DNA of 64,000 nt from a virus. Lineage: Duplodnaviria; Heunggongvirae; Uroviricota; Caudoviricetes. The translations under genes and the position numbers were made by a program. The DNA is taken from the IMG/VR virus record IMGVR_UViG_3300009537_004349; one strand, written 5' to 3'. The notes below the pieces were generated by a model. The model was not told the origin of the DNA, made no database searches, and saw only the letters and a program-made list of their open reading frames with translations. Positions 2,894 to 59,497 of the stretch are shown here, piece after piece (the stretch's first letter is position 1; each line of letters starts with the position of its first letter).

Positions 2894-3340
2894 TTATCGC
2901 ATGGCACCTAATTTTGACGATGCTGTCGCACTGTAAGCTGAGTTGTTCAATAGGAACTCATTCATCCAGTACCAGTTGTCTTTCATATAGCAATTGTACT
3001 GGTCTTGGTCTAGCACAATCGTGTCATCTGATGTAAGCTCTAACATTTCAAGAACAGTGTCGTATTCCTTCAACTGATTCTTGGGTACCTTTAAAGACTG
3101 TAGGGGATGCTTCTTCAAACTAGGTGAAGGCAACTTGGTCTTATCCAGTTCACCTAGTTTATCTGCTAGAATGCCCTCTGTCTCTCGGACAGCCTCAACA
3201 AATGCCTTGCGGTATCCTTCAACTGCCTCGTTATAAATCGTTTCGTGTTCTTCCCTGTTCTTCTTTAGAGTTTCAACCACAGTTGCCTTGCTGAAACTCA
3301 TGCTGATGCTGGACGATGCCATCATATCTCTCCTTGCCAT
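2894..3340 (-). CDS. hypothetical protein
   Basis: 148-aa ORF. Confidence 0.5.
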   Translation of the reverse strand: MARRDMMASSSISMSFSKATVVETLKKNREEHETIYNEAVEGYRKAFVEAVRETEGILADKLGELDKTKLPSPSLKKHPLQSLKVPKNQLKEYDTVLEMLELTSDDTIVLDQDQYNCYMKDNWYWMNEFLLNNSAYSATASSKLGAMR

Positions 3341-3917: not shown

Positions 3918-4193
3918 TCACGCTTTGGTATAAGTGTCTAAAGCCAATAGTGCCCATCGAGTATCAAGCTCACGGCACCAGTCGTTTATGTCACAAAAAT
4001 AAGAAGCATCTCCCTCTTGTTCCACATCTTTAGATGGGATTACAAGCTGAGGAAACACCGGGTCTATTGATACAATTACCGTGTTTCCTGACTCCCTAAT
4101 GTCAAAAGCCGTCTCTACATCCAATTCTCTGAGATGCTCAAACTGACTCTTCGACATATACAGAGAGTACGCTACTTTACTTGCTAAGTTCAT
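3918..4193 (-). CDS. hypothetical protein
   Basis: 91-aa ORF. Confidence 0.45.
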   Translation of the reverse strand: MNLASKVAYSLYMSKSQFEHLRELDVETAFDIRESGNTVIVSIDPVFPQLVIPSKDVEQEGDASYFCDINDWCRELDTRWALLALDTYTKA

Positions 4194-4723: not shown

Positions 4724-5245
4724 TTACCACTCCAAATTACGAAACTCGTCCAGCACTTCTTGTGCCTTCTCCTTAGATAAATCTATATGTTGCATGCCTG
4801 GTTGCCCGCGCTGTTGCACTTTGTATGGTCTTCCTGCCACCATAACTGACAATGTGTAGTCACTCATCGGTGTAAAACAGTGCCACGCAGATGGGTTTGT
4901 CATCTCATATTTACACCCTGGATTTAATATCAGAGTGCTAACGAGATAAATCTCCAAGCATAATTCTAACTTATACGTTCCTTTGGCCACATACATAGCC
5001 GCCTCACATGGATGGCTGTGTGCCTCTGGTTCTCCTACATTATATCCTCTGTGCAGGAAAATGTCAAACAATTCTTCCCCAACCTGAATAGTCTTCTTTA
5101 ATCTTTCTAGCCTGGGTGCCGATTCGATTATAGTTGCGCTCCAGTCATCTAAGTCAGACTGGAGGATGTTGGGCATATCCTTAAGAACTTTGTCCAGGAT
5201 ATCCAACATTACTGGTTCCTTGTAATCTTTACTACTGGTTCGCAT
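4724..5245 (-). CDS. hypothetical protein (possible cupin-like metal site HxH...H)
   Basis: 173-aa ORF; HRGYNVGEPEAHSHP segment. Confidence 0.45.
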   Translation of the reverse strand: MRTSSKDYKEPVMLDILDKVLKDMPNILQSDLDDWSATIIESAPRLERLKKTIQVGEELFDIFLHRGYNVGEPEAHSHPCEAAMYVAKGTYKLELCLEIYLVSTLILNPGCKYEMTNPSAWHCFTPMSDYTLSVMVAGRPYKVQQRGQPGMQHIDLSKEKAQEVLDEFRNLEW

Positions 5246-5499
5246 GGAACTTGTACAACGCCATGAGTATTCTTAGTTACAAAGAAACATAAGTCCGTTC
5301 TACTATCCCATACATAATGCCCCTGGTCGCCTGCTGGGATTTTGATAACCCCGTCGTTGGGCAGCTCTTCTGAACCCTCAATAACAGTAGCTGGTTCTGG
5401 TGTCTTAGCTTCTGCCACTGCAATAATTGTCCCAATTGCACCCATAGATACTAATGCTCCAAGGATACAAAACATTATCACTTCTTTTTCACGTTTCAT
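5209..5499 (-). CDS. hypothetical secreted or membrane-anchored protein
   Basis: 96 aa with N-terminal hydrophobic signal-like segment. Confidence 0.45.
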   Translation of the reverse strand: MKREKEVIMFCILGALVSMGAIGTIIAVAEAKTPEPATVIEGSEELPNDGVIKIPAGDQGHYVWDSRTDLCFFVTKNTHGVVQVPCEPVVKITRNQ

Positions 5500-5967
5500 C
5501 TAAAATCCCTTTCGAAGCTTATATCGCCACATCAAAAATTTACAAGTATCCCTAAACATTATTCTAAATGATGGACGATTACCTGCTCCATATGCAGTAT
5601 CCAGTCGCCAGTTTATATATGTAAATGACGCTATGGGTAAAAAAGGAAATCTTTTCCACCATCCTATCTTACAAATAACAAAATAGAATAGCACTGCCTC
5701 TCTAGCTATTATCAATCCTTCTCGAAACCTGCCCATAAACCTTTTCTGGGATGAGCCTTTTTGCATCTTTCAATATAATCCCTTCGACTGGGCAACCTGT
5801 CTCTAACACAATGAGTAATGCTTGCATATCCACAGGCTATAGTTGAACTCATCTTTTCTGGCTCTGCTCCTGCCAACATAGCATCAAGCAATATCCAGTT
5901 TTCCATCCAGCAGAGAGTGTCCACAATAGCAAAAATAAAATCTAATTCGTCATCAGGACTCTTAAAA

Positions 5968-11768: not shown

Positions 11769-12051
11769 TGTAAGCCTCCGTCTGCTTCACCAGCTTCTTA
11801 TAGTCTGGTCCCTTCCTAACGAAAAAGATAGCCTTGTATTCTCTATCAGCCATCCCTAACTCTCTATGCTTAATACTGGGGATAATGTTCTCTAGCTGTC
11901 CTGAAAAAGCTTCGATTTCGTGATAGTCTTCAAAGCCGATTACTACTGGTAAGTTGGCCTCGATAAAGCTGTCAGGAATCTCAAGAGTCACTGTCTTGGT
12001 CACTTTTCTTCGCGACACTTTCTTTGCTACTTTCTTTTTTGCCATTTCCAA
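11737..12051 (-). CDS. hypothetical protein
   Basis: 104-aa ORF. Confidence 0.45.
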   Translation of the reverse strand: MEMAKKKVAKKVSRRKVTKTVTLEIPDSFIEANLPVVIGFEDYHEIEAFSGQLENIIPSIKHRELGMADREYKAIFFVRKGPDYKKLVKQTEAYIEQWHAELGV

Positions 12052-13087
12052 AAACCTCGTCTATATCTTCGATGGCCTTACAAATTGCACGGCACCTTCT
12101 ATCTAATTGTTTAAGCTTCATTTTGAAGCTATCGGAATCCATGCCACCAAACATCTTGGCGTTAGCATGGATTTCAGCAATACCTGTAAGAAGCAACGTT
12201 GCTGCCTCTGGCCTTGCTGCAAACTCTGGAACATCCTTCGCCTTCAAACAGTGGATGTCCATATCCATTCTAATCAATCTTCCGACCTTTTCATCACCGC
12301 CACACTTTCGCATCCAAGTCTTATAGGATACTTCGGCGTGATTTAAGAAGTGCCTCTTGCCTTCTTCATCAGTCCGCAAACAGTAGGGCTTTCCACAGTC
12401 ATGGAATACGGTATATTTTTCAAGAGTGAAGTCGTCAAATACCCTTTCGAGTAAAAGCTCTCGGTAATCATGTAGTCCTCTAGGAAGTCTAAAAGACTCG
12501 ATTCCTCTCCTGCCGTTATCGCTTGCCAGCCCTTCAAGTAGTAGGCGTAAGTGATGATGAACTTGTTGTCCATGCTCCAGTACCGACATGCCTTTCGTTT
12601 GCTCACAGGATTGCATATCTTTTACAACCTGTCTTGTCTGTCGTTCTTGTCTATCCAGAGCCTCAATCTGTTCAGATGTGCTGAGATTGCCCTGGTCCCA
12701 CGTTTCTCGCCAGCCTAATTTGCCGCCGTGATTTTTCTTTACTCGCCGATTCGGACGCAACGCTGTCTTATAGCCACGACAGAACTCCTTCACTCCTGGT
12801 CCGGGGCAAAGTGCTATCGCCGTTATAGCGTCGCCAATATCTGGCTCTCGAAATGTGGTATGTTGAATATTTTGAACCCTTAGGGTTCTGGAAACGGCGT
12901 AAAGGTCTCGTTCCGTTTTAACCGAAAGCGTGATAATAGAATTTGATGTGTCATGCCAGACCCTCGCCTCTTCTGGGAATTGAAATATGAAATCTGCAAC
13001 TGCGTGATTTGCTTGAACTAACTGATATCCTGGTGTTAAATCTTCTCGTGTAATGATGTAGAGCTTGTGCTCAGGAACCTACGACAT
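11981..13087 (-). CDS. PTH2-family peptidyl-tRNA hydrolase / HD-domain phosphohydrolase fusion; ATG-TCG-TAG then 366 sense codons (in-frame amber at codon 3, 13079-13081)
   Basis: Own translation: the minus-strand frame is open from 13078 into track ORF 11981..12793. The N-terminal extension (HKLYIITREDL...QANHA...ITAIALCPGPG) matches the PTH2 fold. The C-terminal part has an HD motif (VHHH...VFHDCGKP). AAGGAG is 7 nt upstream of ATG 13085-13087, followed by TCG and TAG. Confidence 0.5.
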
Positions 13088-13228
13088 ATTAAATCTCCTT
13101 AAAATGGTTTTTCCTTAACTCTTGGAACATCTGGAACTCTTCTTTTGAGTACCTGAGGCCCTTAATAATAATCAATCGGATGAGGTCTTTAGACGACTTA
13201 CATCCGTACAGATGATATAGGTACACCA

Positions 13229-13256
13229 TCTGTAATACCTTATAGTCTTTATTGGT
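13229..13256 (-). promoter_or_regulatory. candidate sigma70-like promoter (TTGACA-16 nt-TATAAG) upstream of the PTH2-HD gene
   Basis: Minus-strand TTGACA at 13251-13256 and TATAAG at 13229-13234 with 16-nt spacer; about 140 nt upstream of the SD-ATG. Confidence 0.3.
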
Positions 13257-13842
13257 CATTTGTCAATCCTAAAATTTCCAAAATGCGGTCGTCGGTGACA
13301 ACTCTATGCATTCGGATATCGTGCTGCTCGTGAGGTATGGAATCTATGAGCTGAAAGTCATAGCCTATCCCTATAATCTCGCCGTCGAATTTGGCAAGAT
13401 ATTTGTCATAGTATCCTCCGCCGTAACCTATTCTGTGTCCGTGGTGGTCAAAGGCTACACCGGGCACAATCAGAGCGTCTATGGCATTACGAGGATGGGT
13501 TACGAATCTTTTAGGCTGTGGAAAGCCCTGCCTAAAGTGATTCATGCTTCGTGGGTCATCCACTCGTGTAAACACCATGACCTGGTTTCTGCCACGAGTT
13601 CTAATGGCTGGATACAATGGAGCTATTCCCATAGCCAATAGATGATTGTGAATCTTCTGAGTCCTTACTTCGCTTTTAATAGGGACATATAATCCAACAC
13701 TATCATAATTGCTGATTATGGGGACAAGGTTACGAAAGATATGGGTGCTTCGTTCTTCCTGGTTTTGTGCAGGTTCCGCATCTCTTCGCGCCAGAGTTTG
13801 TTTTCTAATCCTGTTCTTGTCAGCTACAATTATACTGCTCAT
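13249..13842 (-). CDS. 5-formyltetrahydrofolate cyclo-ligase (MTHFS/YgfA family)
   Basis: ALIVPGVAFDHHGHRIGYGGGYYDKYL is the signature C-terminal motif of 5-FTHF cyclo-ligases. Confidence 0.7.
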   Translation of the reverse strand: MSSIIVADKNRIRKQTLARRDAEPAQNQEERSTHIFRNLVPIISNYDSVGLYVPIKSEVRTQKIHNHLLAMGIAPLYPAIRTRGRNQVMVFTRVDDPRSMNHFRQGFPQPKRFVTHPRNAIDALIVPGVAFDHHGHRIGYGGGYYDKYLAKFDGEIIGIGYDFQLIDSIPHEQHDIRMHRVVTDDRILEILGLTNDQ

Positions 13843-23927: not shown

Positions 23928-24302
23928 TCATTTTGTCATTTGGGCTCGTGCTTTGATGTATTCCATTAAAGGGATAACATTAACATGCTTTTTGAACCAC
24001 TCGTTTCTTAGTCTCAAGACCTCTTGAGAAAGCTCGGCAGATGGCTCTACTCCTAATTGCTTGGCTACATTCACGGGATTTAATCCACTGTATTTGCTCA
24101 CTGCCCATAAGGGATGAACAATCCTACGTGCCATTGTGGTAGCCCAGCTAAGACTATTCCAGAAAAACTTACCTCGCATTTGTACGGGCTTGCCATCTAC
24201 CAGAACAATGTATCTGCCCTCAGGATTAAACTTTGAGAAGTTATATCGGGCAGCCTTGTTAATAAGTTTCTTTACTTCCAGTTCTTGTTCTTCAGTAAGC
24301 AT
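23928..24302 (-). CDS. hypothetical protein
   Basis: 124-aa ORF. Confidence 0.5.
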   Translation of the reverse strand: MLTEEQELEVKKLINKAARYNFSKFNPEGRYIVLVDGKPVQMRGKFFWNSLSWATTMARRIVHPLWAVSKYSGLNPVNVAKQLGVEPSAELSQEVLRLRNEWFKKHVNVIPLMEYIKARAQMTK

Positions 24303-24485
24303 CTATCTTATCACCTTAAGTTTTCTTTCCTCTGTCAGCTCTATCTTTCTTTCGTCTAGTAAATCCCACATATACTTGCGCGCTTCATAAGGCAAGCCAT
24401 CCTTAAAACCCATAACTCTTGCCAATTCCGTTGGACATAATCCATCTGGGTTTAGGCTAAGAATATATAGAATTACCCCTCTCAT
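24303..24485 (-). CDS. hypothetical protein
   Basis: 60-aa ORF. Confidence 0.4.
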   Translation of the reverse strand: MRGVILYILSLNPDGLCPTELARVMGFKDGLPYEARKYMWDLLDERKIELTEERKLKVIR

Positions 24486-24832: not shown

Positions 24833-25240
24833 ATCTCGGAGTAAGCCTGTAAGCTGGATTCTGTCTAGTGCAATCATTCATCTAGGCTTACCATTACTGA
24901 TAAGCTCAAGCCTCTTACCCGCCAGCACATCGAGCCAATGTATAGCTGGTCTATTTTGAGTTGCAACACCTAGAGTTTAGCCGTTTCACCCTTGTTACTT
25001 ACCTGGGGCAGTACCTTCCACAACTAGTGAGAGCGGCCATCCCCTTATAGGCTCTCAGGGTTTTATTGGTTGTAACAAGACTCGTCTCTGTTCCACTAGT
25101 CCTCACCTCACGGTGGATGGGCGTTACCCACTAGGTTGCTCTGTGTTGTCCAGACTTTCCTCTGCATAGCCACAAGCTAAAGTTTTCAGTGGCGGCGGAC
25201 GCAAGCTCCTTGTATGCAGCGATTGCACGGATTACTCCGT
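24833..25240 (-). ncRNA. rnpB: RNase P RNA, bacterial type-A-like (rnpB)
   Basis: Minus strand carries conserved RNase P blocks in order: AGGAAAGTCTGGAC, GGGTAACGCC, ACAGAGA...AACC, GATGGCC, CAGGTAAG...GGGTGAAA, GGCTAAACTC, CAAAATAG, GGGTAAGAGGCTTGAGC, CCTAGATGAATGA, ACAGAATCCAGCTTA. P1 pairing CGGAGTAA (25232-25239) with TTACTCCG (24837-24844). No ORF at or above the 60-aa track cutoff across this 365-bp gap. Confidence 0.75.
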
Positions 25241-45206: not shown

Positions 45207-45231
45207 TTTATTTTTATTGGGCGGTTAGCCG

Positions 45232-45308
45232 CGCCCCGGGTGGGATTCGAACCCACGACATGCAGGGTTTTAGAGACCCCAGCTCTAACCAGACTGAGCT
45301 ACCGGGGC
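45232..45308 (-). tRNA. amber-suppressor-type tRNA (anticodon CUA), isotype unknown; no encoded CCA
   Basis: Reverse complement GCCCCGG-TA-GCTC-AGTCTGGTTA-GAGC-T-GGGGT-CTCTAAA-ACCCT-GCATGTC-GTGGG-TTCGAAT-CCCAC-CCGGGGC-G. Anticodon loop is 7 nt with U33, C34-U35-A36 and A37. Discriminator is followed by CGG rather than CCA. Flanks extend the acceptor complementarity to 9-10 bp. Confidence 0.6.
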
Positions 45309-46158: not shown

Positions 46159-46579
46159 GCTCTTTGCTCACACCCTCTCCTTCGCGATTGATACTCTCGA
46201 TGTCTGTAACACATCCGCGCATGGTAGTAACCATGGACTCAATATCGAACATAGCCTTATCGGCATCTGAGAAATGTTCGTTGGTCACCTTATCCAAAAT
46301 CTTATTCAACATTGCTGTCTCCTCGTCTAAACTAACTCCGAAAGAAAACAAGCTTCCTTTCTTAAAAACTCTAGCTAAAGCAGAGTGAGTATAGTGTCTA
46401 TAGTTTCTTGACTTATACCCCAGATTGCCATACTTATTAATATAAGTGTATCGCATTCTAGAATACAAAGAGTTCTTGAAGCCCTCTTTGCTACGGAACC
46501 ATCCATCCTTATGGATTCTTTCCGCCTCGGTGCATGCTTCTTTATAAAGCTCACCTACTTCCTCTTGAGTCAAACTCAT
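46112..46579 (-). CDS. hypothetical protein
   Basis: 155-aa ORF. Confidence 0.5.
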   Translation of the reverse strand: MSLTQEEVGELYKEACTEAERIHKDGWFRSKEGFKNSLYSRMRYTYINKYGNLGYKSRNYRHYTHSALARVFKKGSLFSFGVSLDEETAMLNKILDKVTNEHFSDADKAMFDIESMVTTMRGCVTDIESINREGEGVSKELAKVPRFIETGKWDE

Positions 46580-46836
46580 GGTTTATTTCCTTTGCTTATC
46601 TGAAACCAGTGCTGCTCCATTTTCTTTAGAAACTCTTTGTCAAATGAAACCAGCTTATCTGGCAACACAGAATCTATACCACACTTAGGGCACAGAGCGG
46701 TTTGACCACCATCGCACCACTCATATATCTCAGTGGGGCTATAGATACGGCAGCAACAGAAGCAGCCACAGGTTTCACTCTCCATGACTGCTTCTAAATG
46801 ATAGCTGCTGTGTTCGTGTGCTTCAATGATATCCAT
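46576..46836 (-). CDS. hypothetical Cys-rich zinc-ribbon-like protein
   Basis: 86 aa; CGCFCCC...CDGG...CPKC. Confidence 0.45.
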   Translation of the reverse strand: MDIIEAHEHSSYHLEAVMESETCGCFCCCRIYSPTEIYEWCDGGQTALCPKCGIDSVLPDKLVSFDKEFLKKMEQHWFQISKGNKP

Positions 46837-47942
46837 TAGATGATGTCCACGTGATTGATGTCCAACCAGTCTTCCAGCGCCTTGATATTCATCTCGGCTA
46901 GATACTGCCGTACACTCTGCACCTTTCCATGCTTGAGGGAAAACAACGCCCCGGAGTACTTGGAGTCCTTGACTTTCATAGCGAACTGCTTCTTGTCATC
47001 GATATCCTTAACCATCTCATACATACCCTCGATGATACCGCGAGTATAGTCAAACTTTCCTCGCACTTCGGCATACAAAGATGCATACTCGGGATAATCC
47101 TCTAGATAAGAAGAAAACTCTTCGTTCTCATTATCCAGCATGACCTTGAGAATCTCTCTCGCAGGCACAGTGGACATCTTATCCTTGAAGCGAGATAGCG
47201 CTACATACTGCGGGGTCTTAACCTTCACACGATTATAGTTCCCATCGGCGACTACAAACCCTTCGCTCTCTAGAGGGTCCAGCTTCTTAGACGCCTCCAT
47301 AATGTCTTCCCAAGTCTCCAGCGAATGAATCTCCACGCACTCCCAGCCATTATGGTGGGCCACTACGATGGGGTTTACTTCGCTAAAGTCGGACAAATTA
47401 CGAGCGCCGTGTAGAACGATACGATTACGTGCATGCTTAACAACTACCCTGTTATAGGGAGTCATCAACTCAAACATATAGCACATGTTCTTGTTATCTG
47501 GCAAGTCATACTCTAGTTGCTCCCAAACCTTCCAAAACAGGTCGGCGAAAGACAATTCGGAGTTTAGAACATTACCAGCAGCATCAGGCATACCCGAGCT
47601 GGACACATGCCACTTGTTGTCGTAATGGTACAGCGTCATGAGAGAGCCATCTAGTTTCTCATAGACACGAGCGGAGCCCCAGTCTAAGTCCGCTGCGTTA
47701 GATTCTCCATAGTTGAAGAACTTATCGTAGGGATAAGATACAACGGCCCAATCATTTGCCTCATCTAAGATGATTCCTCGTGCCTGCTGTACGATTGGAG
47801 AGTTCATGGGCGAATCAATCTGATTGTACTTAAACAACACCAGATTATCATACACACCGTGGCGCTTTGCTGTTACGGCAAAGCGATTTTCCAACTCCTT
47901 GACTCCATGGTCACGGATGAAGTTCCTTAGTTGCTGGGCCAT
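46836..47942 (-). CDS. rnlA: RNA ligase, T4 Rnl1 family
   Basis: ARGIILDE...YPYDKFFNYGE and nucleotidyltransferase motif I VYEKLDGSLM (KxDG) aligned to T4 Rnl1 RGIMFEMDG...PMEKFFNLNE / TKEDGSLV. Confidence 0.7.
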   Translation of the reverse strand: MAQQLRNFIRDHGVKELENRFAVTAKRHGVYDNLVLFKYNQIDSPMNSPIVQQARGIILDEANDWAVVSYPYDKFFNYGESNAADLDWGSARVYEKLDGSLMTLYHYDNKWHVSSSGMPDAAGNVLNSELSFADLFWKVWEQLEYDLPDNKNMCYMFELMTPYNRVVVKHARNRIVLHGARNLSDFSEVNPIVVAHHNGWECVEIHSLETWEDIMEASKKLDPLESEGFVVADGNYNRVKVKTPQYVALSRFKDKMSTVPAREILKVMLDNENEEFSSYLEDYPEYASLYAEVRGKFDYTRGIIEGMYEMVKDIDDKKQFAMKVKDSKYSGALFSLKHGKVQSVRQYLAEMNIKALEDWLDINHVDII

Positions 47943-50200: not shown

Positions 50201-50237
50201 TATCAGTGGGATGCTCTGCCAGCTGAGCTACGGGCCT
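50162..50237 (-). tRNA. tRNA-Ile (anticodon GAU)
   Basis: AGGCCCG acceptor, TAGCTCAGCTGG D-arm, anticodon arm TCCCA-CTGATAA-TGGGA, GGTTCAAATCC, CCA. Confidence 0.7.
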
Positions 50238-50787
50238 ATTTTCTGACGGGCATCCAGTAGTCCTCTTCGCTGCCTAGTGTGCTAATCCTAACAACACCAT
50301 AACTCTCTTGAAGTTTTCCAATGGCATGCACAACTGATGAAGTTTTAAGCAGGTCTCCTCTACTGTGCCTAAGCTCACTGCCGTATGCCGTGACTTCCAG
50401 GCCCATCTTAGCTCTATTTTGAATGCGTACCTTGTAACTAGCTGTAACACAATCATAGTGTATAACTTGCACAGTGATACCATTCGGAAGCTGATATGTT
50501 TCGTGTCCTAACAGGTCGATATCACTAGAGCGCTCGATTACAGGATTGGCTCGTAACTCTAGCTTGCTGAAAAACTCTTGTCCAGCAATCCATATTGGTT
50601 CTGTCCAAAGCTTTTGCCACCAAGTGAGCTTTGTAGCATCTAATATTCTACCTATAAGGCATATCTCACAGTACTTGTATCCAGGAACAGGCCAACTATG
50701 GTAATCTACACCCAGCTCGCTGCAATCCAGACAGACTTTGGGCGTCCCCTTGAGATATTTTTTCTCTGTTATCAGAGGAATCTCCAT
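50236..50787 (-). CDS. hypothetical protein
   Basis: 183-aa ORF. Confidence 0.5.
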   Translation of the reverse strand: MEIPLITEKKYLKGTPKVCLDCSELGVDYHSWPVPGYKYCEICLIGRILDATKLTWWQKLWTEPIWIAGQEFFSKLELRANPVIERSSDIDLLGHETYQLPNGITVQVIHYDCVTASYKVRIQNRAKMGLEVTAYGSELRHSRGDLLKTSSVVHAIGKLQESYGVVRISTLGSEEDYWMPVRK

Positions 50788-50790
50788 ACC

Positions 50791-50973
50791 CTATTCCTTT
50801 TTTACATTCACCGTACTTTTGAACAATCCTCCTAGTATCAATGCTGCTAGCCACGTCGAAAATGTATACGGAATAGCAAGCACAGGGAAAAGTGTATTGA
50901 GGGACCAGATAGTGAGCAACGGACCCAGGGTGAGTAGAGCAATGACAAATAGAATAAGCAATAAAGCTGGCAT
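50791..50973 (-). CDS. hypothetical small membrane protein
   Basis: 60 aa, two hydrophobic helices. Confidence 0.4.
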   Translation of the reverse strand: MPALLLILFVIALLTLGPLLTIWSLNTLFPVLAIPYTFSTWLAALILGGLFKSTVNVKKE

Positions 50974-56048: not shown

Positions 56049-56430
56049 TAGCCTCCCGCTTCATCTCTGAGAGAAACTTTACAGCCTCGTCTTTATCCTT
56101 AATGCAAGCTGACACTCTGTCTGTACTACCATTCGTTCTCTCTTGAACAACATAATAGCAATCATCCCAAGCATCCATGTGAAATACGTTTGTCAATCTT
56201 GCGGGAGGTTCATCTGGAACCAATACATTATACGAAACGATACTGGACGCCAAAATAAAAGCCAGTCCTACAAGGGCGGACACCACCTGCGCGCCTTCGC
56301 TTTCGCAATAGCTCTCCCACATTCTGCTGACACCAAAAATAGGACGGGGTTTTTCTTTCAACTGCCTCTTAAGGTCAGCGTTTTCTTGTTCAAGCTTGTC
56401 AATCAGTTTGGTCAGTATCTCGTCGCTCAT
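56029..56430 (-). CDS. hypothetical membrane protein
   Basis: 133 aa, central TM helix. Confidence 0.45.
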   Translation of the reverse strand: MSDEILTKLIDKLEQENADLKRQLKEKPRPIFGVSRMWESYCESEGAQVVSALVGLAFILASSIVSYNVLVPDEPPARLTNVFHMDAWDDCYYVVQERTNGSTDRVSACIKDKDEAVKFLSEMKREASENDSR

Positions 56431-58333
56431 TGATATACTTCCACATGTCTTCCAGTTCTATTGTGAAGCCCCCGGAAAGAATCGGGAACCTACACCAGCT
56501 TTTTGGGTCAAGGTTCTTATCATCTACATGGAACGACGGAGCATATCGCTCTCTCTTCCATTGGTTTCTAGACCATAGTCTAAAGAACTTCTCAATCCAA
56601 ACGCCTAATTGATTATCGTCAAACTTGCCCCTTAATGTCTTAAACACTTCGAGAGGCGGCTTCTTATCTCTAATAGCCAGACCTTCAATCGTATCAAGCA
56701 AATCATACGGCATAAGGTCTGATTCATCGTGCTGATTATACTTCTCTGGTCTTAATTCTGCGGTGGGCTTTTGTTCGATAACCAAGTCGAGTGACTTCCA
56801 AACGAACTCATTTCGTACCCACACCAACCACTTAAGCAGAAAATCCTTATCAATCCCTGCCAGTGGACTTAAGCCACCACAAGTATCTCCATCCATAGTT
56901 GCGTACCCAACAGCTGCCTCAGAACGATTACTTGTAGCCAATAAGATAGCGTTATTCAAGTTTGCTACCATCCAAGCGCTTGGTGCTCGTGCTCGTGCTT
57001 GAATGTTCTGCATGGTGATATCATCAGTATCCCAGCTTAGCTCGCGACCGATAGCTCTCTCGACTCTAGCTGTATACATCTCCACCATTGCATCTACATC
57101 CAGCTCCATATAATCAGCGCCGAGTTCCTCAGCTACAGCTCTTGCTGCGTTCTGAGTTATGGTAGTACTATGTCGTGTGGGCTGGTAAATGCAAGTAAGG
57201 AACGCTCTTGTAGCAGTATACTTAAGCTTCCTTTCAAAGGCGTCTTTGTAATCCTTTCTTCCATAGTAGGGAATAAGTCTTACCAAACATGCTGCTGCTG
57301 TAGAATCTGCGCCCCCGCTAAGTGAGACAACAAATCCATTCGACCTTGTTTTGCGCATGTAATCAAACATACCCAAGCACATTGCGCGTGTGAACTCTTC
57401 GAACTCTGAAGCAAGCTCTGTGCTAATAGGTGCAGAAGGTTCCGCATCAGTTAACGGAGACTCAGCTCCCAGAATATCTTCAAAGTTATAGGCTCCTTGA
57501 AGATTTGGCTGATACGAACCCAGTCTCATTCTGTTCTGAGTATTGATGTCCAGGTCAACTACTGCTGTGGTTAGCTGCCCACTGTTATAGCTGAACCTAT
57601 CACCGTTTGCTACCACAACACCATTGTTGGCGATGATAGTATCACCATCATAAATGGTTCGTCCAGACTCATTGCCAAGCAGATTGCAGTAAACATAAGC
57701 TACATTAAGAGAGCGTGAACCCTCTTCCACAATCCGCAACCTGTTTTTGTGCTTGCCGAATGCAAAATGGCTTGCACTGGGATTAAGGATTACCTCAACA
57801 CCATCAGAGGCTAATTTAGCTCCCACTCTATTTGCTGCCCAAGCATCTTCACAAATCTCAAATCCAATCTTGACGCCGCCGAAATCGAATCTTAAGTCAC
57901 CAATCTGAGTATCCAACTCATTGTGATACTCGGTAACCCCGATAGGCCAAGGCTTGAACCAACGATGTTCATAATGCACACCATCATTAGCGAGATGCTT
58001 CTTGGGTACAAGACCAGCAATCTCCCCATTGGATAGCACTGCTACACAGTTGTACAGTGCTCCCTTGTGCAACACTGGCAGACCCACACACACAAACATA
58101 TCTGTAGCTGCTGATGCTACTGGCTCAAGATATGAATAAGCTCTCTTGATTAGTGATGGGGAATGGAATTGGTCCTCGCATCCATAGCCAGTAATGCAAA
58201 GCTCAGGCAAGCAAAGGATTCTTACATCCTCCTCTTTAGCCCTTTGAATAGCGTAATAAACATTGTTTAGATTGTTTTGCCAATCCAGAGGAGTTTGGTT
58301 TAGTGCTGCTGCCCCGAGCTTTACTCTTCGCAT
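56399..58333 (-). CDS. nadE: glutamine-dependent NAD+ synthetase (N-terminal nitrilase/CN-hydrolase domain + C-terminal PP-loop NAD synthase domain)
   Basis: LCLPELCITGY and FEICEDAW (CN-hydrolase E/K/C triad context); VVSLSGGADSTAAA PP-loop. Confidence 0.85.
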   Translation of the reverse strand: MRRVKLGAAALNQTPLDWQNNLNNVYYAIQRAKEEDVRILCLPELCITGYGCEDQFHSPSLIKRAYSYLEPVASAATDMFVCVGLPVLHKGALYNCVAVLSNGEIAGLVPKKHLANDGVHYEHRWFKPWPIGVTEYHNELDTQIGDLRFDFGGVKIGFEICEDAWAANRVGAKLASDGVEVILNPSASHFAFGKHKNRLRIVEEGSRSLNVAYVYCNLLGNESGRTIYDGDTIIANNGVVVANGDRFSYNSGQLTTAVVDLDINTQNRMRLGSYQPNLQGAYNFEDILGAESPLTDAEPSAPISTELASEFEEFTRAMCLGMFDYMRKTRSNGFVVSLSGGADSTAAACLVRLIPYYGRKDYKDAFERKLKYTATRAFLTCIYQPTRHSTTITQNAARAVAEELGADYMELDVDAMVEMYTARVERAIGRELSWDTDDITMQNIQARARAPSAWMVANLNNAILLATSNRSEAAVGYATMDGDTCGGLSPLAGIDKDFLLKWLVWVRNEFVWKSLDLVIEQKPTAELRPEKYNQHDESDLMPYDLLDTIEGLAIRDKKPPLEVFKTLRGKFDDNQLGVWIEKFFRLWSRNQWKRERYAPSFHVDDKNLDPKSWCRFPILSGGFTIELEDMWKYINERRDTDQTD

Positions 58334-58336
58334 GTC

Positions 58337-59497
58337 TTAATCCTTGATTTGAAATACCTTTTTCAGGTACTTGACGTATTCTTCATCGCGACACATTCCC
58401 TTGCCAGCGCTGTCAGAAATCTTAGCGACCGGTCTACCATTACATTCTACAATTTTCATCACGATTTGTAAAGGGGTAATGCCATCGAAGTCATTTGTCA
58501 GGTTTGTACCAATGCCGAAGCTGACGTTGATATCTTTATTAAGCCCATCATACAAGGCTTTAGCTTTCTCAAGGCTTAGACCATCGCTGAATACCAGGGT
58601 CTTGGTCTTAGGGTCAATGCCCAGCTTTTTGTAGTGTTCAATGGCTGCCGCTGCCCACCAAAAAGGGTCGCCGCTATCGTGCCTAAGTCCGTCATAGAGC
58701 TTAGCAAAATACAGGTCGAAGTCCCTAAGGAATGCGTCAAACCCAACCACATCGGTCAGTGCGATACCCAGGTCTCCTCGGTACTCATCCACCCACGCTT
58801 GCAACATTCGCTTCTGTGAATCAATCAGCGGAACATCTAAAGCCTGTCCCACCTGAAGGAACTCGTGAGCCATAGTCCCAATAGGAGTTAGTCCATAATT
58901 TTTGGCAAAGAATACATTTGAGGTACCCCTAAATTGCTCTATTAGGTCAGAGCAACTTAATCTGTCTATTACCTCATCATGCCAATCGTGACTAAATCTT
59001 CTTCTAGTGCCAAAATCTACGAATGAAAATCTTGATGCTTTGGCAACTTCAATCTTATCTATTAGCTTTTTTAATCCATTCTCTAATAGCTCATCTGTGG
59101 CATAGTCTGAAAAGTATACCTCATTCGCAATAGCGAGTACAGGGACCTCCCAATAAACTGTGAGGAACCACGGACCTTTGACAGTGATGCTAAGCTCACC
59201 GTCTTTGTGTTCCACATTCAAGTGAGATAAGTCAGGGCGATAAAGTTTCAGGAAATCGATGTAGCTGTCCTTAAAGAACCTAATGTTCCTCAAGTAATCC
59301 AGCTCATCTTCAGTGAATTTTAGAAGGGAAAAATGTTCCAGCTCATGTCTAATACGTCCAACCTTTGCAGGCGTCCACTCAGCATCATTGCGACACTTGA
59401 ATTCGTACTCGACATTTACCCAGGGGAATTGATGTAGGGCGACTTGGCCCATCGTGAACTTGTACAGGTCTGTATCAAGTAGGCTTGTTACTATCAT
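58337..59497 (-). CDS. pncB: nicotinate phosphoribosyltransferase
   Basis: SLLDTDLYKFTMGQVALHQFP...EYEFKCRN parallels E. coli PncB [20 protein letters not shown]...EFRCRG; 386 aa. Confidence 0.85.
   Translation of the reverse strand: MIVTSLLDTDLYKFTMGQVALHQFPWVNVEYEFKCRNDAEWTPAKVGRIRHELEHFSLLKFTEDELDYLRNIRFFKDSYIDFLKLYRPDLSHLNVEHKDGELSITVKGPWFLTVYWEVPVLAIANEVYFSDYATDELLENGLKKLIDKIEVAKASRFSFVDFGTRRRFSHDWHDEVIDRLSCSDLIEQFRGTSNVFFAKNYGLTPIGTMAHEFLQVGQALDVPLIDSQKRMLQAWVDEYRGDLGIALTDVVGFDAFLRDFDLYFAKLYDGLRHDSGDPFWWAAAAIEHYKKLGIDPKTKTLVFSDGLSLEKAKALYDGLNKDINVSFGIGTNLTNDFDGITPLQIVMKIVECNGRPVAKISDSAGKGMCRDEEYVKYLKKVFQIKD

Follow-up and report, generated by a model that had tools for sequence, protein, structure and literature searches.

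An amber codon at the start of phage PTH2 and HD genes suggests translation gated by a suppressor tRNA

Introduction

Phages that read in-frame stop codons with their own suppressor tRNAs have been described among the crAss-like, Lak and Agate phages, where TAG is decoded as Gln (genetic code 15) or TGA as Trp (code 4), and regulation of the timing of gene translation has been proposed for them as well (Borges et al.). In these recoded phages, tens of percent of the genes, mainly late and lysis genes, contain many in-frame stops, and the standard code does not suffice to read the genome. Here, we describe an arrangement in a 64-kb stretch of the Caudoviricetes record IMGVR_UViG_3300009537_004349 (hereafter the window, meaning the whole stretch of DNA that was analyzed). 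A minus-strand gene for a fusion of a PTH2-type (peptidyl-tRNA hydrolase 2) domain with an HD domain has an in-frame amber stop as its third codon, and the same phage encodes a tRNA(CUA). In contrast to the recoded phages, the standard code is used and TAG is still a terminator, and the stops concern one or two genes, with one stop each at codons 2–9; the genes locked in this way encode tRNA-related enzymes and not structural or lysis proteins. The best explanation, which we hold with good though not complete confidence, is that translation of these putative tRNA 3'-end enzymes is gated by the suppressor tRNA.

Start-proximal or bypassed stops are also known from other systems. In prfB, the gene for release factor 2 (RF2), an early in-frame UGA likewise ties the synthesis of a translation factor to competition at the stop. 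Rescue there is by a +1 frameshift (slippery CUU-U, internal Shine-Dalgarno (SD) sequence) that senses the gene's own product, whereas the phage gene continues in the 0 frame, has no slippery site and would depend on a dedicated tRNA. The bar minigene of phage lambda and other toxic minigenes, known for peptidyl-tRNA drop-off and dependence on peptidyl-tRNA hydrolase (Pth), share the order of SD, AUG, one or a few codons and a stop, as well as the link to Pth biology. They stand alone, with no in-frame protein behind the stop; here, a conserved open reading frame (ORF) of 365 codons follows, and the type of stop tracks the suppressor. In RNA viruses and phage Q-beta (A1), a fraction of the ribosomes also reads through a stop to make a longer protein. 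That readthrough uses host near-cognate tRNAs and adds a C-terminal extension to a functional protein, whereas here almost nothing would be made without readthrough and the virus supplies the cognate suppressor. An engineered counterpart is the synthetic feed-forward 'leak dampener', in which an amber codon is placed in the target gene and the suppressor tRNA is co-expressed, such that output needs both mRNA and tRNA (PMC7969014). The phage lock would be natural and widely conserved, with the tRNA gene commonly just downstream and co-oriented.

It is an open question why many standard-code jumbo phages carry a suppressor tRNA without a known target. The authors of the XacN1 genome looked downstream of amber stops and identified no targets for their suppressor tRNAs (PMC5852040), and the papers on Atu_ph07 (PMC6102473) and RsoM2USA offer only speculation on the role of the suppressors. 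A comparative review of jumbo phages lists PTH2 and leaves suppressors unmentioned, while the recoding study of Borges et al., which concerns genome-wide recoding of late genes, leaves the hydrolases unmentioned. Our literature search, covering open-access papers and bioRxiv, found no description of the leader-stop arrangement. We classify it within suppressor-tRNA recoding in phages, with a distinct logic: a single start-proximal stop, in specific tRNA-related genes, in phages that use the standard code.

Results

Structure of the locked gene

Direct reading of the minus strand gave, in order, the SD AAGGAG (13100–13095), the 7-nt spacer ATTTAAT, ATG (13087–13085), TCG (13084–13082), TAG (13081–13079) and GTT (13078–13076), in agreement with the initial annotation, which had reported AUG UCG UAG GUU behind this SD. 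The spacing of the SD suits the leader ATG, and not the TAG or any later codon. The leader (13079–13087, minus strand) consists of a start, one sense codon and the in-frame amber as codon 3, with G as the +4 base. After the TAG, the DNA reads GTT CCT GAG CAC AAG CTC TAC ATC ATT ACA CGA GAA GAT, and the frame stays open for 365 codons, up to a TGA at 11983–11981. The full coding sequence (CDS) of the putatively amber-gated PTH2-HD fusion therefore occupies 11981–13087 (minus strand) and is 368 codons long when the leader is counted.

The first ATG, GTG or TTG past the TAG is a GTG at 12793–12791, 95 codons downstream. Since this is the first canonical start, ORF finders and the public gene calls (P0001, P0002) give a 270-aa protein, which is only the 3' part of the CDS. 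The proposal that the 95 further upstream codons encode a PTH2 domain was borne out by the open frame and by a match to Pfam PF01981 above the cutoff. A 56-aa upstream ORF (13089–13259, minus strand) has a TAA stop that ends 1 nt before the leader ATG (TAA-T-ATG), a junction that would permit translational coupling; the same ORF and junction are present in the related locus L001. Upstream of the locked gene, and separated from it by one short ORF, lies a gene for 5-formyltetrahydrofolate cyclo-ligase (13249–13842, minus strand). When the 8 kb surrounding the locked gene were compared with GenBank phages by megablast, nothing matched, indicating that there is no close cultured relative, and PADLOC also returned no match.

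Conservation of the amber codon in close relatives

The TAG is not an error, as independent assemblies from other samples carry it. L001, which comes from another sample and encodes a protein 87% identical to that of the window, has an identical AAGGAGATTTAAT ATG TCG TAG GTT. Across the 95 start-less codons, the two genes differ by 5 synonymous and 0 nonsynonymous changes, compared with 46 synonymous and 33 nonsynonymous changes in the remainder of the gene. At 61% identity, L002–L005 read ATG ACA TAG GTT GGT CAT AAA CTA TAT, with codon 2 differing at all three positions and ATG, TAG and GTT retained. The database protein P0004 (52% identity) seemingly has Gln at this position ('MSQINQ'), and its DNA (L097) reads ATG TCA TAG ATT. 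The initial annotation had named a sense codon in related genomes as the finding that would speak against a functional stop; the opposite was seen, with relatives at all three levels of identity keeping ATG-NNN-TAG. The pattern of substitutions shows purifying selection downstream of a conserved in-frame TAG.

Distribution of the leader across the family

For a broader view, 80 loci from IMG/VR, 8 from genomes or metagenome-assembled genomes, 12 from metagenomes and several GenBank phages were collected, and from each PTH2 or HD domain the frame was walked upstream to the first in-frame stop. The 144 distinct PTH2/HD gene starts comprised 111 with a TAG leader (ATG, 0–7 further codons, TAG), 6 with a TGA leader, 27 of the ordinary kind and none with a TAA leader. 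The search for ATG-NNN-TAG in related phages that the initial annotation had suggested thus revealed a recurring leader. Counting the ATG, the TAG leaders are 1 codon (8 cases), 2 (53), 3 (24), 4 (16) or 5–8 codons (10) long. Visible SDs sit right for the leader ATG regardless of leader length (1 to 8 codons), and TAG was seen only at codons 2–9 and never inside the gene bodies of the family. Additionally, an unbiased scan of the gene strand in 730 kb of loci returned 45 TAG leaders versus 8 TGA and 7 TAA, the TAG leaders being nearly all on PTH2 or HD genes. The 12 further loci from the metagenome scan have a TAG leader in every case with readable upstream sequence.

The leader is carried by PTH2-HD fusions, by reversed HD-PTH2 fusions (XacN1, RAS14, L074–L082) and by separate genes, and the same lock occurs on PTH2/HD genes of phages of Proteobacteria, Bacteroidota and Actinobacteria. 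Adjacent separate PTH2 and HD genes usually have one leader each (e.g., L015, L018, L021, L028, L030, L035 and L110–L115). In L112–L114, the PTH2 gene (start in the 3001 region) and the HD gene (start at about 3540) have almost identical leader peptides, MKEEFT or MKEQFT before the stop, with synonymous differences in the DNA; selection may act on the peptide or cassette as such, or it may have been copied from one gene to the other. A chromosomal PTH2-HD homologue in Sphingomonas sp. 3-13AW (NZ_JASNVZ010000001; L101) has no canonical start for more than 25 codons. At about 2940–3000, it shows a short leader, ATG AAC ACT TCG CAT TGA, one frame off the PTH2 frame, which could represent a decayed copy, an indel or a form of the lock shifted in frame.

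The base that follows the leader TAG (n = 111) is A in 83 cases, G in 21, C in 7 and T in none; purines account for 104 of the 111, and all seven C belong to CUN codons. Among the ordinary TAG terminators of the window, a purine comes next in 18 of 28. In E. coli, a purine or CUN after UAG reportedly favours suppression, as Bossi and Miller and Albertini are said to have described in 1983. The codon after the TAG never begins with T and is ATT in 49 of the 111, across both unrelated protein families. This excess of ATT goes beyond a plain preference for purines, and it could reflect an optimal suppression context or a near-cognate restart codon.

Suppressor tRNAs and covariation with the stop codon

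Linkage was counted in 69 unique IMG/VR loci with 3-kb flanks. A tRNA(CUA) lies within 3 kb of the gene in 29 of these loci, and CUA accounts for 36 of the 160 neighbouring tRNAs, the next commonest anticodon reaching 9. Where a locus contains exactly one tRNA, it is CUA in 13 of 16 cases. All 36 tRNA(CUA) genes are co-oriented with the PTH2/HD gene, 28 of them downstream. The suppressor tRNAs of the loci comprise 38 different sequences of several structural types, sometimes with two types in tandem, and nearest-neighbour comparison with 250 phage tRNAs gave best identities of 64–78% to a mixture of Lys, Arg, Thr and Met types. This diversity fits a codon position that tolerates any residue.

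The pairing extends to named phages. Tenacibaculum phage pT24 (L086) has the leader ATG AAA TAG ATA and a tRNA(CUA) 2.6 kb away, while in Cronobacter phage GAP32 (L091; ATG GCA CAA TAG AAT), Salmonella phage Arash (L092, OQ632216; ATG CTG TAG AAC) and Acinetobacter phage ME3 (ATG ACT TAG ATT) the tRNA(CUA) is within 3 kb. In mycobacteriophages Bxz1 (ATG TAG GTG) and ScoobyDoobyDoo (GTG TAG GTG), it is located 180–300 nt downstream of the PTH2 gene. Xanthomonas phage XacN1, with the leader ATG AAG TAG ACC on ORF364, has two tRNA(CUA) genes in its terminal repeats, and Ralstonia phage RsoM2USA has leaders on both genes and one tRNA(CUA) elsewhere in the genome, according to the RsoM2USA paper.

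The few TGA leaders follow a different suppressor. In one clade, L009 and L011 carry a TGA leader encoding MNTNHEA with a tRNA(UCA) nearby, and L095 and L096, whose TGA leader encodes MSMNINHEA, have a tandem pair of tRNA(UCA) genes 60 nt downstream of the gene; protein identity between L009 and L095 is 70%. Agrobacterium phage Atu_ph07 has been reported to carry an opal (UCA) suppressor (PMC6102473). A TGA leader was predicted from this suppressor and then found (L108; ATG ATT GGC GAA CAC TTT TGA ATT AAT), with TTGACG-N17-TATAAT upstream and a PTH2 domain in frame after the TGA. Relatives of this gene with a tRNA(CUA) nearby (L053, L065) have TAG leaders. In all three TGA-leader lineages where the suppressor is known, it is a tRNA(UCA), and no TGA leader with a tRNA(CUA) neighbour was seen in the loci compared. 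In L027, a TAG leader lies near a 'UCA' call, which is an atypical tRNA without U33. This covariation of stop and anticodon is the strongest argument that the leader stop is decoded by a tRNA and not bypassed in some other way. Together with the conservation of the TAG and the linkage to tRNA(CUA), it supports the proposal of the initial annotation that the gene would be expressed by programmed amber readthrough and is not dead.

In several unrelated phage contigs (L015, L018, L035, L071, L083 and L110), tmRNA genes were observed within about 3 kb of the PTH2/HD/tRNA(CUA) module, which hints at a ribosome-rescue island.

The tRNA(CUA) of the window

In the window, ARAGORN identified the tRNA(CUA) expected some 32 kb from the gene at 45231–45308, on the same strand as the locked gene (minus) and 32.1 kb distant. 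It forms a class-I cloverleaf with the anticodon loop CUCUAAA and scores 61 bits on the Rfam tRNA model. According to the 'extended anticodon' of Yarus, a loop of the CUCUAAA type is said to be that of efficient amber suppressors. The gene has no encoded CCA and ends in CCGGGGC-G-CGG, with flanking bases that can extend the acceptor stem to 9 bp; phage tRNAs read in the closely related loci L001 and L002 encode CCA. The 27 tRNAs that ARAGORN found in the window are all encoded on the minus strand. They are not clustered but lie one by one between small ORFs, at intervals of about 2 kb, and the tRNA(CUA) is the sole reader of a stop codon among them.

Two other identities of this tRNA were rejected. 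The ARAGORN label 'tRNA-Pyl' merely reflects the CUA anticodon, since the tRNA fits the general tRNA model. Pyrrolysine tRNAs have a 6-bp anticodon stem, a 3-nt variable loop and a small D-loop without GG; the tRNA of the window instead has an anticodon stem of 5 bp, a D-loop of 10 nt that contains GG and a variable region of 7 nt, the comparison covering the tRNA and not pylS or pylBCD. An amber-initiator tRNA was also rejected, as position 1:72 is paired, the three G:C pairs of the initiator anticodon stem are absent, and the SD spacing tracks the ATG.

A gene for a T4 Rnl1-type RNA ligase (46836–47942, minus strand) lies 1.5 kb from the suppressor tRNA. Furthermore, a full-length bacterial class A RNase P RNA was detected at 24834–25238 (minus strand; Rfam RF00010, 209.5 bits, gathering score 100), surrounded by phage-like genes and tRNAs. 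It would be unusual for a virus to encode an RNase P RNA; its presence is consistent with maturation of the phage tRNAs by the phage itself.

Domains of the PTH2-HD protein

The PTH2-fold domain occupies residues 5–94 after the TAG (12797–13066, minus strand), within the start-less stretch. This stretch matches the Pfam PTH2 profile (PF01981) with 27.0 bits (cutoff 23) over profile positions 2–101 of 115. Because the match begins at residue 5 and profile position 2, the domain starts right behind the TAG. With the NCBIfam Pth2 equivalog model, the domain scored only 18 bits, far short of the cutoff of 126, and it is thus not an equivalog. The N-terminal domain has the alpha/beta fold of Pth2, and the Asp of PTH2 (D80 in E-P-D-I-G) and the Q..H-A motif are invariant in the alignment of the subfamily. 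A second, more canonical phage PTH2 subfamily keeps GKLAxQxxHA...ITALGIGP, and the leader is present there too.

The HD-superfamily domain (family phrog_14850) spans about residues 134–340 (12059–12679, minus strand). The HD claim of the initial annotation held for the all-alpha HD fold and for the metal-binding motif H...HD...D, with H169, H226-D227, H247, D272 and H276 invariant in 24 sequences. At the profile level, the match to TIGR00277 HDIG is weak (15.5 bits, below the cutoff of 27.6), the C-terminal half has no Pfam HD match at E≤0.1, and PF01966 was recorded only for the distant homologues P0073 and P0090. An AlphaFold (AF2) model of the 365 residues after the TAG, based on 24 homologues, has a predicted local distance difference test (pLDDT) of 89.7, with a disordered linker between two folded domains.

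Enzymes of the PTH2 type hydrolyze the ester bond at the tRNA 3' end, and the HD domain most closely resembles that of CCA-adding enzymes. Both halves thus suggest chemistry at the tRNA 3' end, which the PTH2-HD protein would be expected to clean or repair. The surroundings fit such a role, with the 27 tRNAs, the Rnl1-type RNA ligase and the RNase P RNA of the window, and tmRNA genes and a CCA-adding enzyme beside the PTH2/HD module in related phages. The PTH2/HD family is essentially restricted to phages and megaplasmids; among 185,579 species genomes, only 8 loci were present.

Genetic code of the window

ORFs on the minus strand in the standard code cover about 96% of the window. Among 147 such ORFs, 62 end in TAA, 57 in TGA and 28 in TAG, and an SD-like 4-mer lies upstream of 75. 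Of the start-less stretches that follow an upstream stop in these 147 ORFs, the 95 codons of the locked gene are the longest, the next values being 53 and 29. When the whole window was scanned for an ATG followed by no more than 8 codons, a stop and a long ORF, there was no other case with an SD and a long start-less frame. Over the 64 kb examined, the phage has not reassigned TAG, and one locked gene is present.

The second-longest start-less stretch, the 53 codons, belongs to the ORF at 46576–46836 (minus strand) and lies behind an in-frame TGA; the window contains no tRNA(UCA). At three places on the minus strand, a TAG-ended ORF runs in frame into the next (24303–24485 into 23928–24302, 5500–5766 into 5209–5499, and 50791–50973 into 50236–50787). 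The junctions read TAG ATG or TAG GGT ATG, and amber suppression would fuse each pair; similar in-frame junctions exist with TAA and TGA, so the three may be due to chance. Other genes of the window include a NAD synthase/nitrilase fusion (56399–58333) and a nicotinate phosphoribosyltransferase of NAD salvage (58337–59497), both on the minus strand.

Discussion

Proposed mechanism

We infer from the arrangement of the sequence that ribosomes would load at AAGGAG and initiate at the ATG at 13087, probably coupled to the upstream ORF, and would reach the UAG after one codon. With host release factor 1 (RF1) alone, a dipeptide would be released and nothing useful made, because no start codon follows for 95 codons past the UAG. 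Once expressed, processed and charged, the phage tRNA(CUA) would compete with RF1 and insert an amino acid, and the ribosome would then complete the full PTH2-HD protein. The non-conserved leader that holds the amber codon precedes the first domain, so any residue placed there would be tolerated, and the abortive product would cost very little. In this light, the tRNA looks like a dedicated translational activator of PTH2/HD genes.

Alternative explanations

Termination at the mini-ORF followed by reinitiation, or non-canonical initiation at the adjacent codon (often AUU), would express the gene without a suppressor and make the tRNA(CUA) incidental. We consider this improbable. The frequent ATT after the TAG is in its favour, as are the mycobacteriophage leaders, in which ATG or GTG is followed by TAG and then GTG, and the genes with an ATG a few codons beyond the TAG. 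However, this position is occupied by GTT in the window and its close relatives and by AAC, ACC, GGC or AAT in other members, and these codons are not starts. Reinitiation would also not account for the use of TAG in 111 cases and of TAA in none, for the predominance of tRNA(CUA) among the neighbouring tRNAs, or for the pairing of TGA with tRNA(UCA) in three lineages, including a confirmed prediction. It is very improbable that the leader is a bar-type minigene, which would yield short peptidyl-tRNAs by drop-off, either sensing host Pth or giving substrate, with readthrough as a secondary effect. An SD, an ATG, 1–7 codons and a stop are indeed the anatomy of Pth-dependent drop-off minigenes (PMC2490762, PMC10192219), and the gene behind the leader has a Pth-type fold. 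Nevertheless, the HD gene bears the same leader even as a separate gene, and the main ORF lacks its own start and must be reached by ribosomes that pass the stop. A minigene would, moreover, work with any stop, whereas the leaders never use TAA and their stops vary together with the anticodon of the suppressor.

Genome-wide reassignment of TAG (genetic code 15), which would make the leader TAG an ordinary sense codon, appears extremely improbable. The phage does encode a tRNA(CUA), phages that recode stop codons by means of suppressor tRNAs have been described (Borges et al. preprint), and one database record, P0004, renders the TAG of a homologue as Q. Against it stand the coverage of the window by standard-code ORFs, of which 28 of 147 end in TAG, with a single interrupted frame in the 64 kb, and the confinement of the family TAGs to codons 2–9. 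XacN1 and other cultured carriers are treated as standard-code phages, and XacN1 has 18 amber stops (PMC5852040). A single in-frame stop near the start and gene calls limited to the 270-aa 3' part could also result from a recent nonsense mutation, from decay to a pseudogene or from a sequencing error, but the probability of this is practically negligible given the same TAG in independent assemblies from other samples, its retention at 61% and 52% identity and in 111 family examples, and the absence of nonsynonymous changes beside 5 synonymous ones. Three further mechanisms were rejected for the window gene. A ribosomal hop has no matching landing codon after the TAG. In a prfB-type +1 frameshift, TCG-TAG-G offers no +1 re-pairing, and the downstream ORF is in the 0 frame, the +1 frame not being that of PTH2. 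Finally, the GTG at 12793 as the true start of an HD-only protein is made improbable by its sole SD-like sequence, AGGA, which abuts the GTG, and by the replacement of its Val with Ile or Thr in relatives.

Several observations nonetheless weigh against suppressor-gated translation. A near-cognate start codon (ATT, ATC, ATA, ACG, GTG, CTG or ATG) follows the TAG in 63 of the 111 leaders, and 27 of the 144 family members have ordinary starts. The HD gene of L017 is unlocked although it lies beside two tRNA(CUA) genes, and the second PTH2 of Atu_ph07 (gp680, membrane-anchored) also has an ordinary start. In XacN1, Bxz1 and L095, an in-frame ATG or GTG occurs a few codons past the stop, and these genes could be expressed without suppression. 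Some tRNA-independent reinitiation at a low level may take place in certain phages, though not for the window gene, which has GTT. The tRNA(CUA) of the window is 32 kb off and, unlike most of its neighbours, has no encoded CCA; its activity is assumed. As for the enzyme, the canonical catalytic Lys of Pth2, a position compared by eye with the canonical gp680 sequence, is not conserved in the subfamily, where it is Tyr, Thr or Gln (it reads GYQ). Since this Lys is not kept, the name 'peptidyl-tRNA hydrolase' is inferred at the level of the fold.

Possible purpose of the gate

If the tRNA and the mRNA are co-transcribed, suppressor-gated translation would act as a coherent feed-forward AND gate and dampen leaky or premature expression. 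Alternatively, it may serve scaling, with output tracking suppressor activity such that rescue and recycling enzymes match the burden of readthrough, or feedback, with the tRNA 3'-end enzymes limiting or promoting the charging of the tRNA that unlocks them. The rationale put forward in the initial annotation, namely that the enzyme clears products of aberrant termination, stands as a possible purpose, but as only one of several. More tentatively, and with clear doubt on our part, the suppressor tRNA might be a dedicated regulatory RNA rather than an aid to decoding, a charged-tRNA 'reporter' in a feedback loop. On this reading, synthesis would need a suppressor with an intact, aminoacylated 3' end, and PTH2/HD output would be in proportion to, or limited by, the state of the tRNA pool on which the enzymes act. 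The loop would form a self-contained orthogonal switch in phages of at least three bacterial phyla and could have been the seed of genome-wide stop-codon reassignment.

Implications

The arrangement has consequences for annotation, as locked genes are systematically truncated, split or missed. Affected annotations include those of pT24 (L086), RAS14, GAP32 (L091), Atu_ph07 gp256 and P0001/P0002. For Arash (L092), the PTH2 annotation (2838–2990) covers a fragment of 50 aa, and the tRNA(CUA) (3976–4050) is labelled tRNA-Phe. The canonical-type PTH2 of Atu_ph07 (L108, 38552–38884) is listed as a hypothetical protein in truncated form.

The lock could be tested directly in tractable systems, namely Salmonella phage Arash, Cronobacter phage GAP32, M. 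smegmatis phage Bxz1 and Xanthomonas phage XacN1. PTH2/HD genes locked at their 5' ends, XacN1 ORF364 among them, appear to be the targets of the orphan suppressor tRNAs of phages. They would represent a natural, widely conserved case of genes switched on by a dedicated tRNA, with the same logic as the amber suppressors of synthetic biology. Suppressor tRNAs would thereby be tied to tRNA 3'-end maintenance and ribosome rescue, which may be relevant to the conflict between phage and host over tRNAs.

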